IMG/VR virus record: IMGVR_UViG_2548876857_000009
Reading direction: 5' to 3' (one strand)
Source: a virus
Lineage: Duplodnaviria > Heunggongvirae > Uroviricota > Caudoviricetes
DNA: 11,732 nt
Under the pieces are notes generated by a model that had not been told where the DNA came from, made no database searches, and saw only the letters and a list, made by a program, of their open reading frames with translations. The translations under genes and the position numbers were made by a program. Positions 1 to 7,071 of this stretch are shown piece by piece; position 1 is the first letter of the stretch, and each line of letters opens with the position of its first letter.

Positions 1-168
1 TTTTGGTGTTTTGCCCTGACGCTCATCACGCAGTTGTTTGACCCATCTTGTCATTATGGAAAGGCCGATATCCATAGCTTTGGCGGCATCTGCCACCGTG
101 CAGTTCTGGTCAACAACCAGTTGAGCGGATTCGCGTTTAAACTCTGCGCTGAAATTTCTTTTTTTCAT
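1..168 (-). CDS. IS911-type transposase OrfA (HTH DNA-binding subunit), N-terminal 56 codons only; the rest lies outside the window
   Basis: Minus-strand ATG at 166-168, then [56 protein letters not shown], near-identical to IS911 OrfA as I remember it. The frame is open to the window edge. Confidence 0.8.
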
Positions 169-240
169 TGGAGCACCTGTGTTGTTCTGAGGTGAGCATA
201 TCACCTCTGTTCAGGTGGCCAAATTCAGTGTGCCACTACA
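1..240 (-). mobile_element. Left end of an IS911-like (IS3 family) insertion sequence; only ~240 bp lie in the window and the element continues past the window start
   Basis: Minus strand read from ~240 gives TGTAGTGGCACACTGAATTTGGCCACCTGAACAGAGG..., a TG-initiated terminal repeat as in IS3-family ends, followed ~70 nt later by the orfA start. I recognise the terminus and the OrfA N-terminus as IS911 from memory; not database-verified. Confidence 0.8.
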
Positions 241-1415
241 AAGTAAGCCCACCACTGCATCATCGGACGACGTTGCTCAAGGTAATCACTGCGGTTGTAA
301 GCGCGACGTACCTCATTTTTGTCTACATGAGCCAGTGCTGCTTCAATGACATCAGGCGGGAATCCTTCCTCATTGAGTGCCGTACTAGCGATAGAGCGTA
401 AACCGTGTGATACGAGTACGCCTCCTAAGCCAGCACGCTTAAGTGCGGCATTAACTGTTTGGCTGTTCATTGGCTGGGTTGGTTTGATGCGACTGGGAAA
501 GATAAACTCTCGGCCACCACTGAGTGACTTCATCATTTCCAGAATAGAAAGAGCCTCATCCGATAGTGGAACCGTATGGTCTCGGTTCATCTTCATACGA
601 GCTGCTGGAATTTTCCATTCTTTAGCACTGAAATCGATCTCATCCCATCGTGCCTCAGCGGCTTCGGCAGGGCGGGTAATGGTGAGAAGCTGCCACATGA
701 ACAAGCACCGCGTTGACATACTGATACTTGCTGTACGCATTGTTTGCATTAACTGTGGAAGCTGATCCGGACGGATACTCGGCATGTTTTTCTTTTGCGG
801 TTTCTCGAACGCTTTTCCGATATTTACACTGGGAACTGCATCAATCAGGCCTGTGTTCTGCGCATAAATCATGACTTCGTTAATACGCTGACAAAGGCGG
901 CGAACAGTCTCTAATGCACCTCTGGCCTGAACCGGCTGAACAGCTTTAACCAGAGTATGAGCCTAAATCTCAGTGACGCTGATATCACCGATTGCTGGGA
1001 AAACATCTCTCTCAAGCGAGCGCCAGATATCGTCGGCATAGTCCTCTGTTACGCTGGCTTTCTTCACATTCCACCAACGCTCGGCAACTAACAAGAAGGT
1101 GTTGGTTTTGGCCTCTTGAGAATTCCTCACCTGTTCTTTCTGGTGTTCCTGAGGATCAATATCTTTTGCCAACAAAACTCGAGATTCAGCTCTGAGTTTA
1201 CGCGCATGAGAAAGGGAGACAGCAGGGTAGGCACCGAAGCTCTGCTTGGTTCGCTGTTTGGTTAGAGGCCGATAGTAACGGAACTGCCAGAGCTTACTAC
1301 CGCTGGACTTTATTAACAGGGTCAGCCCATCACCATCATAAAGCTGGTAATCGGCATCTTTAGGTTTGGCGGCTTTGATTTCCGTATCGGTTAACGGCTT
1401 GGTTTTTCTTGCCAT
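225..1415 (-). pseudogene. int: P4-type tyrosine integrase, disrupted by an in-frame TAG at 963-965 and by replacement of its C-terminal end with the IS911 terminus
   Basis: ORF-track ORFs 963..1451 and 225..872 are in the same minus-strand frame, separated only by one TAG. Joined, they align end to end with the intact integrase at 10521..11732 (MARKTKPLTDTEIKA vs MARTTRPLTNTEVLRA, and HGLRSIASTALNEEGFPPDVIEAALAHVDKNEVRRAYNRS in both). Start taken at the ATG at 1413-1415, preceded by GGAG. The last ~5 codons and stop (225-242) fall inside the IS terminus. Confidence 0.8.
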
Positions 1416-1434
1416 GGGGAGTCTCCATGCGTTT

Positions 1435-1471
1435 AGGCCCAACGAAAACAATAGAGCTTTTCGTTGGGCCT
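1435..1471. repeat. Perfect 14-bp inverted repeat (AGGCCCAACGAAAA / TTTTCGTTGGGCCT) with 9-nt spacer, ~20 nt upstream of the int pseudogene start
   Basis: Read directly from the sequence; function unknown (possible operator or 5'-UTR hairpin). Confidence 0.5.
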
Positions 1472-1535
1472 ATCAATGGGCCTAAAAGGTTCGGATTTAA
1501 TTAGTTCTCTTCGGACTTCGCGGGACAAATTGAAG

Positions 1536-1572
1536 ACACAAAAAAGCCCGCAGGGCTTGTGCCGTGCGGGCT
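1536..1572 (-). terminator. Rho-independent terminator on the minus strand
   Basis: 8-bp GC-rich stem AGCCCGCA/TGCGGGCT (1545-1552 and 1565-1572) with 12-nt loop, followed on the minus strand by UUUUUGUGU. It lies downstream of the alpha-crr transcript and of the tRNA-3'-end-like segment. Confidence 0.6.
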
Positions 1573-1775: not shown

Positions 1776-1910
1776 AGGAAAAAAAATTTTTTTTCGAAAG
1801 AACTGTTCACACTGTTCACCTTTCTGTTTTCTCCTTTTATTTCATAGTGATAGGTGGTGAATAATGGGTGAAGGGTGAACATTCGATTCTTCACCTCCGG
1901 CATTCTGCCG
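1776..1910. repeat. crr (cis replication region) direct repeat copy 1, with type-I iteron octamers
   Basis: Contains TGTTCACACTGTTCACC and the inverted GGTGAA...GGTGAAGGGTGAAC. Near-identical to copy 2 exactly 180 bp downstream (1803 aligns to 1983). Confidence 0.8.
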
Positions 1911-1955
1911 GTGTGACTCATACCGGTGATTAATCCTCCGCACTGAAATCACTCA

Positions 1956-2090
1956 GGAAGAAAAAAGTTTTTTTTGATTTGATTGTTCACACTGTTCACC
2001 TTTCGTTTTTCTCTTTTAATTTCAGTGTGATAACGGGTGAATATACGGTGAAGGGTGAACAGTGGATTGTTCACCTTCGGGGGATTCAGG
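1956..2090. repeat. crr direct repeat copy 2
   Basis: Same octamer arrangement as copy 1 at 180-bp period. Matches the P4 crr description (two ~120-bp direct repeats separated by ~60 bp) located just downstream of alpha. Confidence 0.8.
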
Positions 2091-2134
2091 GATGAAAAAA
2101 GACCGGCAGATGCCGGTCAGATGAGTCATGAGGG

Positions 2135-4468
2135 TCAGGTTGTTGCAGGGTCGTCACATTTTGGCAGCCAGTCGCCGTAGCTTTCCTCTTTCAGTGTCAG
2201 GTTGGTCTGTATCCCCTGTTTGGTATGGCGCTTCTCGTAATTCAGTCCGTATTCCTTCAGCATCACCGGCAGCCCCAGCCCGAACATTTTCAGGCTGAGT
2301 ACATTCCGGTAGCCGTTTGCCTCCATGTAGGCCAGATAGGCGTGATAGAGGTATTTACGGTAATTACGCGGGATGATACTGGCGTTCCCCATATACATGC
2401 CGCTGGTCTGCGGCAGGGTTTCCAGATAGCCGATAAAATCAAACGTCGGGTCGGCATCCCGTTTGATGTTCAGTGCCTCGTCTGAGTTCTGCTGGGACTG
2501 AAGCAGTGACCGGGCGAGCATCGGGTCGCTGAACTTCTGCATCAGGTGACGCACGATGACCGCCAGCTCGCGGGTGATTTTGTCCTTAAGCTGCGGGTCG
2601 CGCTCCTGCGGGGCTATCTGTTCCGGGAAGTGAATAATCACCCGCCGGCGTGACACGCCGCCGCTGCGGTCGGTGAAGCGCATCGGGTTATTGTTCACGG
2701 CCAGAATCACCGCCGGGATGTGCGTGGAGTATGCATCCCGGTATTTCGGGTCAACGGACACCGCATCGCCGCCGGTGATGGCCTTGAGTCCGGCACCGTC
2801 GCCGCTCCATTTTTCCTGGTCCGGCAGGCGTATCAGTGAGAAGCCAGTTAACGCGGCACGTTCACGCGGGGATTCCAGCGTCTCGATGGTGGCCGACGTG
2901 GCGTTATCCTCCCCGGCCAGCAGGGTGGCTATTTCGGCCATGATACTTTTGCCGCTGCCGCCGGGACCGGTCACCTCCAGAAAGAGCTGCCAGTCGTAGC
3001 GGTTTGCCAGCACCATAAACAGTGCGGCCAGAATCACGTCGCGTTTTTCCGCACGGCCACCGGCGGCACGGTCAAGCCAGCGCCAGAACGCGGGGGCGTG
3101 GGTTTCCAGCGTTTCCCCTTCCACCGGCGGGGTGAAATCCACATCGCACAGGGTGCGCATCCAGTGTGACGGACTGTGCGGGTGGAACGTGCCGTTCTGC
3201 GTGTCGAGCACGCCGTTACGAAAGCCAATCAGGCGGCGGGAGGGGGCTTCCTGCTGCGGAATAATCAGCTTCAGGGTGTCCACCACGGAGGCCACCTTCC
3301 CGGAGGAGAACGGCGCACGCAGCCGCTGAAACAGCCCGGCCACATCCCGGGCAAAGTCCTGTGGTGGCAGCACCTTCCAGACACCATTTTCATAACGGGA
3401 CAGAAGCTGGCCGTTGGCATCGACCGCGAGCGCCTCGCCGTAATGCTCATAGATACGCATGGCCTTTTCGCTGGTACTCATGGCGGAAAACTCCGCTTCG
3501 CTCATGGTGTCGAACGGGCTTTCAGCCGGTGGCCGGATGGCATCGTAAATGGCCTTACGGGTGGCTTCCCCGCCGTACTGCGTGAAGGCATCATTCCAGT
3601 CACCGAAGACCGGCGGCAGGGCAACAACACCTTCACACGCATCTGCGGCTGCGGCGGCTTTTTTCTGGCCGTCACCGCTGAGGTCACGGTCTGCGGCAAG
3701 GACAATCTGACAGGCCGGATGCTTCTGCCGGGCAAGGCTGGCCAGAGAAAAGAGGTTCACGGAAGAAAGCGCCACCATCACCGTTTCACCGGTCAGGTGA
3801 TGTACGGTAAGTGCGGTCGCGTATCCCTCCGCTATCCACAGACGTTTTCCGGCCTGATTCTGTCCTTCAAGGATGTGACAGGTGCCCCTGACCTGCCCGC
3901 CTTTCAGGGTGCGCTTACGGCCGTCAGCGCTGATTAACTGAAGGTTAACCAGTTCGCCGCTGTCGTCATACAGTGGCACCACAAGGTCACCGGCGCGCCA
4001 GCTCACGCCACCGGCTCTGTGTGTGCCGGTCAGCATCCGGCATTCCCGGCCGGGAAAGCCCTTGCGGGTCAGGTAGGCGTTACCGGTTCCGGTACGGGTT
4101 TTCGCCATCAGGGTTTGTGCCAGTGCGGCGGCGTTCTTCCGGGCAGCGTCTGTTTCAGCGCCGGCGGCGGCCGTCACTGCCGGGTCAGCCGGGGGCAGGC
4201 TGCCGGTCACGGCAGCCACCTTTGCGGCCGCGTCGGACGGGGAAACACCAAACACCTTTTCAACCAGTTTCAGGCCGTCACCGGCACCACACTGATTGCA
4301 GTACCAGGTGCCGCGCCCCTCCCTGTCATCAAAACGGAAGCGGTCACTCCCGCCACAGACCGGACAGGGCTGATGACGGTTCTTAAGCACCTGAATCCCC
4401 AGCGCCGGGAGAATACGCGGCCAGTGGCCGAGCGCATGGCTGACGGTGGCGGTTACGTTCATTTTCAT
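2135..4468 (-). CDS. alpha: P4 alpha-type replication protein: N-terminal zinc-binding primase fused to a D5/SF3-type helicase
   Basis: 777 aa, the same length as P4 alpha. N-terminal Cys motif CPVCGGSDRFRFDD...CNQCG; Walker A VTGPGGSGKS in the C-terminal half. RBS AAGGAGAA 8 nt upstream of the ATG at 4468. Sits between cnr and crr as in P4. Confidence 0.9.
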   Translation of the reverse strand: MKMNVTATVSHALGHWPRILPALGIQVLKNRHQPCPVCGGSDRFRFDDREGRGTWYCNQCGAGDGLKLVEKVFGVSPSDAAAKVAAVTGSLPPADPAVTAAAGAETDAARKNAAALAQTLMAKTRTGTGNAYLTRKGFPGRECRMLTGTHRAGGVSWRAGDLVVPLYDDSGELVNLQLISADGRKRTLKGGQVRGTCHILEGQNQAGKRLWIAEGYATALTVHHLTGETVMVALSSVNLFSLASLARQKHPACQIVLAADRDLSGDGQKKAAAAADACEGVVALPPVFGDWNDAFTQYGGEATRKAIYDAIRPPAESPFDTMSEAEFSAMSTSEKAMRIYEHYGEALAVDANGQLLSRYENGVWKVLPPQDFARDVAGLFQRLRAPFSSGKVASVVDTLKLIIPQQEAPSRRLIGFRNGVLDTQNGTFHPHSPSHWMRTLCDVDFTPPVEGETLETHAPAFWRWLDRAAGGRAEKRDVILAALFMVLANRYDWQLFLEVTGPGGSGKSIMAEIATLLAGEDNATSATIETLESPRERAALTGFSLIRLPDQEKWSGDGAGLKAITGGDAVSVDPKYRDAYSTHIPAVILAVNNNPMRFTDRSGGVSRRRVIIHFPEQIAPQERDPQLKDKITRELAVIVRHLMQKFSDPMLARSLLQSQQNSDEALNIKRDADPTFDFIGYLETLPQTSGMYMGNASIIPRNYRKYLYHAYLAYMEANGYRNVLSLKMFGLGLPVMLKEYGLNYEKRHTKQGIQTNLTLKEESYGDWLPKCDDPATT

Positions 4469-4482
4469 GGTGTTGTTCTCCT

Positions 4483-4803
4483 TCAGTGCAGTACCGGCGC
4501 TTTTATGTGACGGGCACAGAGTTCATCCATCACAACCAGCCCGAGAAAGGACAGCGACGGCGCGGCCTTCAGGGGGCCGGATTCCATTAAATCTTCCAGC
4601 AGGGCACAGGCTATCTGACGCCCTTTTTCCTCACCGTGCTGGCGCAGATAAAAGCCTTCCAGCTCAGCGGCGATGGCCGCCTCCAGTGATTCAAGGGTGA
4701 GATGCGGGTAGCGGTGCTGACGTTCGCACACGGTCAGCCAGGCACAGGCGACAGCACGACGGTAAAGGGCTGCGCGTAAGACGGGCGGTAAGGGTGTTTT
4801 CAT
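4483..4803 (-). CDS. cnr: Cnr-like copy-number regulator (P4 orf106 equivalent)
   Basis: 106 aa, immediately upstream of alpha on the same strand; RBS GGGAGG 8 nt before the ATG. Assigned by size and position as remembered for P4; no sequence memory to confirm. Confidence 0.6.
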
Positions 4804-4938
4804 TTGCTTTCCTCCCTGTGACAGATGACTGCATTCCGTGCCGGTTGCATTAACTGATAAGGCATATCTGCGTCTCCTGAAGACGTGCGTATCCCTGCGC
4901 GAATACGCACATTTAATTTTTCGGGTGTCGTTTTTTAA

Positions 4939-5394
4939 TTACAGATAATTGCGGTAACTGTTATCCGGGGTGATTTCCGGGTCAGGCTCCGTGCGGGGAA
5001 TTTCCCGCCATTCCCGCGCCACCGGTGCCGCCCGGCTGACCGGAACAGGGTCCTGCGGGTAAATATCCAGATATTTCTCCCGCCATTTCTGTAATTCCGG
5101 GTCTCCGGCCATTTCTTTCAGTACCGCATGCCGGTTTACGGGGCTGCGTTTAAACAGGTCAGGACGGTCACAGGTAAATTCCCGCAGAAAACGCCCCAGC
5201 GGGATGTCTGTGGTGCGCCCGTCAGCGAGGATACGCACAAGGATACTGAATTTACGGCGGTACGGGTTCCAGACAATGTCCGGGCAGCGGTACGGCATTT
5301 CCCACGGAATACCGTCTTCCAGAATGCCGACCACGGCCACATCGGGAAAACCGGCAGAACGGTAAATCTCACCGGGCTGGGGAAAATCAAACAT
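4939..5394 (-). CDS. Hypothetical protein, P4 orf151 equivalent
   Basis: 151 aa ORF in the position of P4 orf151, upstream of cnr. Its start overlaps the stop of the upstream ORF, suggesting operon coupling. Confidence 0.6.
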   Translation of the reverse strand: MFDFPQPGEIYRSAGFPDVAVVGILEDGIPWEMPYRCPDIVWNPYRRKFSILVRILADGRTTDIPLGRFLREFTCDRPDLFKRSPVNRHAVLKEMAGDPELQKWREKYLDIYPQDPVPVSRAAPVAREWREIPRTEPDPEITPDNSYRNYL

Positions 5395-5674
5395 GCGTCT
5401 TGTCTCCCCGGTCTTTCTGCTGGGCGAGAAAATCGCGGCACAGGCCTTTGGCTTTCAGCTCATTCAGCACAAAATCAATATCTTCATTCAGGTAGCTGAA
5501 AATATGCGGAATGTAGAGCTGATGCAGGCCGGAGAGTTCACGGTGAATCAAATCACCCCCAACAAACTGGGATACGGCGCTGGCGCGGTTGAGCTTATGG
5601 TAAGCCTCAATGCTGAGGTGTTCACGGGCGTCATGACGCGCTGAGACGGTCTGAGGGGCTTTTTTATTACGCAC
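5387..5674 (-). CDS. Hypothetical 95-aa protein, GTG-initiated; possible P4 epsilon (eps) equivalent by position
   Basis: The frame has no internal Met. GTG at 5672-5674 is preceded by GGAGG at 6-nt spacing and overlaps the stop of the upstream 65-aa ORF (GTGCGTAA). The eps name is a positional guess only. Confidence 0.5.
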
Positions 5675-5864
5675 GGGACACCTCCACCACCGGCAGACGG
5701 GCAGCAAGGGAGAGCACATAGTCACGGACAAGGGAACGGCGGGCGCTGCGTTCATCACCGGCGACGGTGCGAAGCATACAGATACGGGGATGACGGTCTG
5801 CGCGACGGACAGCCGCAAACACAAAGACAAATTCAGGGTGTGAAGGGGTAAGGGTTGTAGCCAT
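5667..5864 (-). CDS. Hypothetical 65-aa protein of the early-left operon (kil/eta region)
   Basis: ATG at 5862-5864 preceded by AAGGAG at 8-nt spacing. It is the 3' part of the ORF-track frame 5667..6302, whose upstream portion I regard as noncoding. Confidence 0.5.
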
Positions 5865-5929
5865 AAGGCAGTCTCCTTCGAGTAGCAAATAACTGCTATC
5901 GCCGGAGTTCCTACGCTCGATGGCGATAG

Positions 5930-6000
5930 CCCAGACGGGGGTAGGAATACCGGCCTCGAAGAATACCGGCCAGCCCGGAGGCTGCCCCGCCTGAGCTACC
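5930..6000 (-). ncRNA. Candidate CI-RNA-like immunity RNA (seqB-like element); approximate boundaries
   Basis: On the minus-strand transcript AUUCCUACCCCC (plus 5937-5947) is complementary to GCGUAGGAAC, which occurs upstream (plus 6150-6159) and downstream (plus 5907-5916). This is the seqA-seqB-seqC arrangement of P4 immunity. The region also has tRNA-like motifs (GGUAGCUCAGG, UUCGAGG), consistent with RNase P processing. No convincing ORF with an RBS. Confidence 0.3.
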
Positions 6001-6253
6001 ATTGACTCAGTGGCATAACATGCGATTGCGAACAGGATCATACCTGCACGGCAAACCACACGCCACACCATAATCTGGCGCTCTGTGGCGTTGATTGCGA
6101 CACAAAAAAAGACGCATGGCGCGTCATATGTCGCCTTCGAGTTACACGGGTTCCTACGCCCGGCTGCCGATTTTGCGGCAGCGGAAAAACTATATCCGCA
6201 AATGCCGGAAAAAGGCAAGCCAGAAAAAGGGACTTTTTGCAGAGCGGGCATCA

Positions 6254-6520
6254 TCATGCGTCGTACCCCCGTTTGCGTCCGGCAATGCGTCCGGCCATCC
6301 ATGCGGTGACTTCAGAGTGCAGCCAGGCCACATTTTTACCGCCAAGACTCACCTGCGGCGGAAATTCCCCCTTACGGATGAGTTCGTAGATGGTCGAGCG
6401 TGACAGGCCGCACAGGTGCATCACTTCCGGAAGACGCAAAAAACGCTCCTGTGTGATGTCCGGCTGCGGCATCAGTGGCGTCACAGGGGCGGGAGACGGG
6501 GAAGAAAAAACAGCTTGCAT
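6254..6520 (-). CDS. vis: AlpA-family DNA-binding regulator, Vis-like (P4 orf88 equivalent)
   Basis: 88 aa. Motif [48 protein letters not shown] is typical of AlpA/Vis HTH proteins. RBS GAGGT 7 nt upstream. It is the first gene downstream of the leftward TGT-N12-ACA dyad. Confidence 0.75.
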
Positions 6521-6622
6521 CGGGCTACCTCGTTAATGTCCATACAGCACCGGATAAGTCCGTCCGGCTTCGGGTAGCGCTTTATTTTGTGAATATTTTC
6601 AGCAGACGCAACAGGGGGAATT

Positions 6623-6640
6623 TGTTCCGGCAACCTTACA
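6623..6640 (-). promoter_or_regulatory. Candidate Delta/Ogr-dependent late promoter element (PLL-like) driving leftward transcription into vis
   Basis: TGT-tccggcaacctt-ACA (TGT, 12 nt, ACA). P2/P4 late promoters carry this dyad centred near -55, which would place the start ~50 nt upstream of the vis ATG. Confidence 0.45.
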
Positions 6641-6796
6641 ATGGCTGTGTGTTTTTTATCCATCCGGACTGGAAGGGTCTCAAAGGGTTCTGAAGGACCT
6701 GGAATTTTTTATAGTGAAATGCAAATTGTTTTTTCTTATTTATTTCAGTTAATTAATAAAAATAAACAGTAATAAACAGCATAAAAAGCCCATCAA

Positions 6797-6904
6797 CGGG
6801 TGAACAGTGGTGAACAGACGGTGAACAGTCATTACTGCGATTATTCACCCTTTAACTTACTGTATTACTTATCTTTTTTCTTATGGTGAACAGAGGTGAA
6901 CAGT
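6797..6904. repeat. ori-like iteron cluster (replication origin)
   Basis: GGTGAACAG three times in tandem (6798-6828), an inverted TTCACC (6845-6850), then GGTGAACAG twice (6886-6903): six octamers in an AT-rich context. The same octamer occurs in crr ~4.9 kb away, matching the P4 ori/crr arrangement. Confidence 0.75.
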
Positions 6905-6981
6905 AAAATATAAAAAAACAAACAGTAAGCCGGTTTTTCCTGCGACCTTTTCCTGGCTTGCCGGTCTGAGGATGAGTCTCC

Positions 6982-6999
6982 TGTGTCAGGGCTGGCACA
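6982..6999 (+). promoter_or_regulatory. Candidate Delta/Ogr-dependent late promoter element (Psid-like)
   Basis: TGT-gtcagggctggc-ACA dyad ~80 nt upstream of the sid ATG; possible -10 CACAAT near 7034-7039. Confidence 0.5.
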
Positions 7000-7071
7000 T
7001 CTGCAATGCGTCGTGTTGTTGTCCGGTGTACGTCACAATTCTCTCAACCTGAAGTGACGAGGAGCCGGAAA

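Follow-up and report, generated by a model that had tools for sequence, protein, structure and literature searches.

Gene content of the window and its relationship to phage P4

The window, which here means the whole stretch of 11,732 bp that was analysed, carried the gene content of phage P4, namely alpha, cnr (ORF106), vis (ORF88), sid, delta and psu, and its positions 1781-9113 aligned with positions 4291-11624 of the P4 genome (X51522) at 97.4% identity. The P4 cohesive-end (cos) 19-mer was also intact at 9114-9132 and identical to that of P4. The alpha gene was located at 2135-4468 on the minus strand and encoded a 777-aa protein with primase, SF3 helicase and C-terminal winged-helix origin-binding regions, matching Zn_Ribbon_Prim, Toprim_3, D5_N, DUF5906 and Pox_D5 in Pfam. 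The protein was identical to P4 alpha at 769 of 776 residues (99%), and its residues 671-770 were 100% identical to PDB 1KA8, the crystallised origin-binding winged-helix domain of P4; at the DNA level, the identity of the gene to that of P4 was 98%. The gene for the copy-number regulator acting on alpha, cnr, was encoded upstream of alpha at 4483-4803 on the same strand, with a product 100% identical to P4 ORF106 and assigned to Pfam DUF5375.

The immunity RNA module of P4 was detected with Rfam, also on the minus strand, as the C4 antisense RNA (5919-6006), isrK (6105-6182) and the c4-a1b1 targets (6143-6195). It was followed by vis (6254-6520, minus strand), encoding an AlpA-family HTH protein (Pfam Phage_AlpA) identical to P4 ORF88 at 86 of 88 residues (98%), and by sid (7072-7806, plus strand; 244 aa), which was assigned from the P4 annotation and aligned with the start of P4 sid. 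In E. coli FORC 064, a 99%-identical element adjoined ssrA, with its integrase gene abutting the tmRNA gene. The window was therefore considered to contain an integrated P4-like satellite.

Octamer repeats between vis and sid and at crr

The initial annotation had placed an origin of the P4 type between divergent vis and sid promoters, consisting of six octamers in ~110 bp of AT-rich DNA and sharing its octamer with crr 4.9 kb away. Each part of this description agreed with the results. The cluster at 6799-6902 spanned 104 bp and consisted of five exact octamers and a sixth variant, TATTCACC, that kept just the TTCACC core. The exact copies read GGTGAACA on the plus strand, that is, TGTTCACC on the minus strand, and the letters of 6797-6904 ran GGTGAACAGTGGTGAACAGACGGTGAACAG ... 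ATTATTCACC ... GGTGAACAGAGGTGAACAG. The GC content of 6700-6899 was 0.305, compared with 0.51 for the whole window. The distance between crr and the cluster was 4,719 bp from edge to edge (2080 to 6799) and ~4.9 kb from centre to centre. The position between divergent promoters followed from the gene order and from flanking dyads, the promoters themselves being putative and recognised by homology and motif.

Iterons 1 (6799-6806), 2 (6809-6816) and 3 (6820-6827) were exact copies of TGTTCACC on the minus strand, as were iterons 5 (6885-6892) and 6 (6895-6902). Iteron 4 (6842-6849) was inverted, lying on the plus strand, and matched with one mismatch. The start-to-start spacing of the six octamers was thus 10, 11, 22, 43 and 10 bp. 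The true repeat unit was found to be a 10-mer, GGTGAACAG(T/A), with start-to-start spacing of 10, 11, 65 and 10 bp.

Motif counting showed how strongly the octamer was clustered. Exact copies of TGTTCACC numbered 10 on both strands of the window against an expectation of 0.40, a count that was reached in none of 200 shuffles of the window, and all ten were confined to 1813-2075 or 6799-6902, so that the octamers were not randomly distributed and the clustering predicted for crr and ori alone was obtained. When one mismatch was allowed, 29 matches were found (9.4 expected), 16 of which fell within these two clusters.

The second cluster, crr (1781-2080, plus strand), comprised two direct repeats of 120 bp from family D1, located at 1781-1900 and 1961-2080 with 81% identity and a spacing of 180, and contained ten type 1 iterons. 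The iteron matches started at 1804, 1813, 1856, 1874, 1888, 1984, 1993, 2036, 2054 and 2068, and corresponded to the ten annotated repeats of P4 at an offset of 2510. The P4 crr is likewise annotated as 2 x 120 bp, at 4291-4590. Only two substitutions distinguished the 300 bp of crr from P4, and none was located inside an iteron.

The correspondence at the vis-sid cluster was equally direct. The six octamers coincided, at an offset of 2511, with the six features annotated as 'ori type 1 repeat' at 9310-9413 of X51522. Iterons 1, 2 and 3 were equivalent to P4 9310-9317, 9320-9327 and 9331-9338, iteron 4 to 9353-9360, where P4 has TGTTCACC, and iterons 5 and 6 to 9396-9403 and 9406-9413. Across the iteron region, the window differed from P4 by one iteron base (G to A at 6843) and two spacer bases. 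On this base-for-base alignment with the P4 origin, in which the annotated repeats occupied the same positions, 6799-6902 very probably constitutes the iterons at the core of a P4-type satellite prophage's replication origin (ori, ori1), predicted to be bound by alpha with crr as its bipartite partner.

An origin of this type has already been described and is annotated in the P4 reference genome, and the window is a fresh copy of a known element. Among the 5,426 complete E. coli genomes, 1,004 carried the 108-bp ori core, in every case on the chromosome. There is accordingly little new in the finding itself, which re-identified the P4 origin in one of about a thousand E. coli genomes having it. 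In the RefSeq annotation, no feature was found under the ori sites.

The iteron 4 variant and the activity of this copy

The G-to-A substitution at 6843, which converts iteron 4 to TATTCACC, was not seen in P4, 17 close relatives or 30 distant loci, all of which keep G, and just 3 of the 1,004 E. coli genomes matched the 108-bp core at 100%. Loss of any single iteron reportedly inactivates ori1 of P4, so that a weakened iteron 4 could matter. Function of this ori copy is also not guaranteed, since the satellite is integrated as a prophage and has decayed mobile DNA next to it. Given the iteron 4 change, full activity of the copy in the window is the main point of doubt.

A stronger form of this doubt is that the prophage is a decaying remnant whose P4-homologous origin is dead or crippled and no longer fires, for example through the change in iteron 4. 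The rarity of the substitution fits such a history, as do the IS fragment and split integrase at the left end of the window and the sporadic iteron mutations seen in other prophage copies, such as GGTTAACA in locus L171 and AGTGAACA in locus L002. The other parts of the element, however, were all intact: alpha was a full-length ORF with 99% identity to that of P4, Cnr was 100% identical, and the ten crr iterons and the cos 19-mer were the same as in P4. The decayed DNA was located to the left of ~1534, outside the satellite. Moreover, TATTCACC is annotated twice as a type 1 repeat within the functional crr of P4 itself. A dead or crippled origin is considered very unlikely.

Conservation of the two clusters among alpha-encoding loci

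The two-cluster arrangement was examined in 80 loci with alpha homologues (57-99% identity) from different Enterobacterales species, 1.50 Mb in total, with a cluster defined as at least four octamer-like sites with no more than one mismatch and gaps of no more than 70 bp. Clusters were confined to two places, 1.2-3 kb upstream of alpha (ori-equivalent) or downstream of it (crr), and none was found elsewhere in the 1.50 Mb or in block-shuffled controls. When alpha identity was 79% or higher, the ori cluster was detected in 28 of 30 loci and the crr cluster in 37 of 42; at lower identity, this strict criterion recovered 19 of 34 and 3 of 35, respectively. The suggestion that a shared octamer at two distant loci is a hallmark of P4-type replication thus held across the related loci.

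An unbiased 7-mer search, comparing the upstream cluster with the 500 bp downstream of alpha, identified GTGAACA/TGTTCAC as shared in most loci with alpha identity of at least 79%. The order in which two copies are followed by an inverted one and then by three more, at ~10, 42-43, 21-22, 11 and 10 bp, was kept down to 57% alpha identity, and was observed in Rosenbergiella (57%), Pantoea, Serratia and Pectobacterium. In a Pantoea clade of ten loci, the iterons at both the ori-equivalent and crr-equivalent sites (~1.65-1.96 kb upstream and 40-140 bp downstream of alpha) were mostly YCTTCACC instead of TGTTCACC, with unchanged spacing. Such a coupled change at both sites is what is predicted if one protein reads both.

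The downstream clusters mostly began ~55 bp past the alpha stop codon, and some were displaced by inserted DNA by 0.7-2.3 kb. In nine loci, a crr-like cluster, or an extra one, was located 0.7-2.3 kb past alpha, which suggests insertion of DNA between alpha and crr or duplication of crr. An alignment of 32 sequences showed conservation of the iterons, the AT-rich spacer, the A-rich block AAAAAAACAAACAG and the dyad of the sid promoter (Psid), whereas the left flank was hypervariable. The value of these results lies in annotation, as the two-cluster octamer signature around alpha provides a clean family-wide marker for ori and crr in the P4-like satellites of Enterobacterales.

Four loci encoding an alpha 98-99% identical to the E. 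coli type had been assigned to MAGs with the names Clostridiales, Ferruginibacter, 'bacterium' and Ruminococcus. These names most likely reflect binning contamination.

Promoter context of the cluster

The iteron cluster was flanked by two TGT-N12-ACA dyads at distances of ~160 bp and ~80 bp. The dyad upstream of vis (6623-6640), which aligned with that of P4, is the putative activator site of the late leftward promoter PLL, and the one upstream of sid (6982-6999), identical in P4 and conserved across genera, is the putative activator site of Psid. TGT-N12-ACA is the motif of the Ogr/Delta-activated late promoters of P2 and P4. A sigma-70 promoter scan of 6400-7150 gave no match, as expected, since the late promoters of P4 are activator-dependent.

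The location between two activator sites, and the rightward extension of the conserved block to Psid, would also be compatible with octamers that serve mainly as operators of the divergent PLL and Psid, bound by alpha or another protein as a transcription factor or roadblock, with replication as a secondary role. The same octamers, however, lay downstream of the alpha terminator, where there is no such promoter pair, and the pairing of ori with crr was conserved across genera even in loci with crr displaced by inserted DNA. The P4 annotation and the cited literature give these repeats a role in origin recognition, and any regulatory side effect of alpha binding would add to the replication role, not replace it. 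We regard a primarily regulatory function as extremely improbable. A chance or low-complexity origin of the octamer cluster was ruled out by the window counts, the shuffles and the block-shuffled controls on the 80 loci.

AT-rich DNA around the iterons

Three AT-rich segments accompanied the iterons of the proposed P4-type origin. The left block (6706-6798) had a GC content of 22% and contained degenerate AATAAACAG repeats together with the least stable 40-mer of the entire window (6736-6775), which was located 24 bp to the left of iteron 1. The spacer between iterons 4 and 5 (6850-6884) was 35 bp long, had a GC content of 20% and was strongly conserved in an alignment of 30 species, making it a candidate unwinding segment. 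The minimal ori1 of P4 is reportedly 123 bp long with a 35-bp AT-rich region, with which the exact 35-bp length and 20% GC of this spacer are consistent. The right block (6903-6930; 21% GC) was the A-rich sequence GTAAAATATAAAAAAACAAACAGTAAGC. Its AAAAAAACAAACAG part hardly varied across genera, suggesting that it is under constraint, for example for unwinding, for priming or as a Psid upstream element. On either side of the true iterons, at 6761-6782 and 6907-6928, there were also degenerate iteron-like repeats rich in AT (AATAAACAGT, AATAAACAGC and AAACAAACAGTAA).

A search for the DnaA box TTWTNCACA found none in 6560-7060, the single copy in the window being located at 8943, and a DnaA-box-dependent origin, of the type of the DnaA-dependent iteron plasmids, was thus ruled out. 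The lack of a box in this region is consistent with the DnaA independence of P4 replication.

Predicted initiation and comparison with known replicons

In P4, binding of alpha to the octamers, initiation at ori and the need for crr in cis are known from biochemistry and genetics. Looping between ori and crr, replication independent of DnaA and stimulation of alpha binding by Cnr also belong to the P4 system. A second origin, ori2, is reported to lie inside the alpha gene of P4, and is probably present in the window element because the alpha gene is 98% identical in DNA to that of P4.

P4 alpha uses its winged-helix domain to bind the repeats of the origin, and then unwinds and primes (PMC4234260). 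By analogy, the C-terminal winged-helix domain of the window alpha would bind the TGTTCACC octamers at ori and those at crr, 4.7 kb off and just downstream of alpha. The bound protein would assemble on the six helically phased sites, its SF3 helicase would open the adjacent AT-rich DNA, and its DnaG-type primase domain would prime, so that theta replication would start without DnaA. In this scheme, Cnr would restrain replication through alpha, and crr would be required as the other half of a bipartite origin, probably by means of an alpha-mediated contact between ori and crr. Binding, looping, unwinding and firing at the window copy are what we infer from the P4 literature.

When compared with the ori and crr of P4 (X51522 / NC_001609; 1KA8), the window was alike in the location between vis and sid, in the spacing and orientation of the six octamers, in the 35-bp AT-rich spacer, in a crr of 2 x 120 bp with ten octamers, in an initiator with 99% identity and the same DNA-binding domain, and in an identical Cnr. 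It differed by the G-to-A change in iteron 4, by a few substitutions in the AT-rich flanks and by another allele of the 'type 2 repeat', and the element differed further in its ssrA-side integration, its integrase and its cargo.

Iteron theta plasmids such as pSC101, R6K, F, P1 and RK2 replicate with their own winged-helix Rep initiator, which binds the iterons, and use a second iteron set in control or pairing. The second cluster of P4 differs in that it is needed in cis for initiation and is not only inhibitory. These plasmids resemble the window in a phased direct-repeat cluster beside an AT-rich unwinding segment, a layout described previously (PMC2777425). Their iterons, however, are ~17-22 bp long, compared with 8-10 bp here, and the P4-type initiator differs in being itself the helicase and primase, with no DnaA box at the present locus. 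The combination of primase, SF3 helicase and C-terminal winged helix with recognition of the own origin is shared with the pri-rep proteins of PICI/SaPI elements (with ori iterons), ORF904 of pRN1 and poxvirus D5. Of these, pRN1 differs by its prim/pol domain and by a stem-loop origin without iterons. The origins of SaPIs are single clusters beside rep, unlike the bipartite pair 4.7 kb apart.

Type 2 repeats and the helper phage

The left flank of the origin contained a variant 'type 2 repeat' block at 6662-6705 (plus strand), identified by alignment with P4 and made up of the 10-bp repeats CTGGAAGGGT, CTCAAAGGGT and TCTGAAGGAC, which can also be written as GACTGGAAGGGTCT, GTCTCAAAGGGTTC and GTTCTGAAGGACCT at 10-bp intervals. 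It takes the place of the P2 cox-boxes of P4, in whose 'ori type 2 repeats' (9176-9205) the box TTAAA(G/C)NC(A/C) occurs twice without mismatch, at 9180 and 9190; no cox-box was found in the type 2 block of the window. The flanks of the block remained close to P4, being identical to the left of ~6620 and ~90% identical to the right. The allele found in the window was also carried by 17 close relatives and was present in 275 E. coli genomes, compared with 439 for the P4 allele. Other genera had yet other periodic repeats at this position in the 32-sequence alignment.

In P4, Cox of the helper acts at the cox-boxes to activate PLL and derepress the satellite. The site of P2 Cox for activation of PLL is located upstream of this promoter, with boxes recurring every 10-11 bp (PMC3936717). 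The Cox protein of W-phi fails to activate P4, and its recognition site is a 12-nt direct repeat in the Pe-Pc region of W-phi (PMC5009727). The window allele, (C)TGGAAGGGTC-like, resembled this 12-nt CCTAGAA(A/G)GGAC direct repeat of the W-phi Pe-Pc switch, and the Pe-Pc region contained CCTAGAAAGGAC and CCTAGAAGGGAC as well as two more AAGGG sites. The number of 6-mers common to the block and the W-phi switch was 9 against 2.45 expected (p ~0.009, uncorrected, with five phages compared), in a test that was insensitive, as the positive control of the P4 block against the P2 switch went undetected. The overlap is thus only suggestive.

A scan of viral contigs for AAGGGTN4AAGGGTN4AAGG returned at least 120 contigs, mostly unrelated, the informative ones being P4-like satellites with the same allele. 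No helper phage was found among these contigs, and none of them encoded a P2 Cox homologue. Vis is unlikely to be the reader of the type 2 repeats because its HTH is unchanged. One tentative explanation, to which we attach rather less than even credence, is that the left flank of ori constitutes a helper-specificity module, in which satellites may swap the type 2 cassette to follow different helper Cox proteins and leave the alpha/iteron replicon fixed. If confirmed, the interchangeability of the periodic repeats that separate the origin from the PLL activator site would bear on the helper choice of satellites.

Integration site and cargo of the element

The leftmost part of the window (1-1553) did not derive from P4. 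An IS911/IS3 fragment occupied 1-242, and a tyrosine integrase was present in two pieces, as ORFs at 225-872 and 963-1451, probably left over from another island integrated at ssrA. The 20-mer at 1534-1553 was found again in E. coli FORC 064, where it lies between int and ssrA; it is likely an att-related duplication at the left boundary of the satellite. At the other end, the integrase encoded at 10521-11732 differed from P4 Int, giving no megablast match to P4. The usual attachment site of P4 is leuX; as the integrase of the 99%-identical E. coli element abuts ssrA, the satellite uses the tmRNA gene instead.

The genes gop, beta and cII of P4 were replaced, beside cos and between psu and int, by an ORF of 328 aa at 9283-10269, for which no match was obtained in Pfam or PADLOC. 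The interval between psu and int is a hotspot of anti-phage defence in P4-like satellites (PMC9122126), and the ORF is a candidate for an uncharacterised defence gene.
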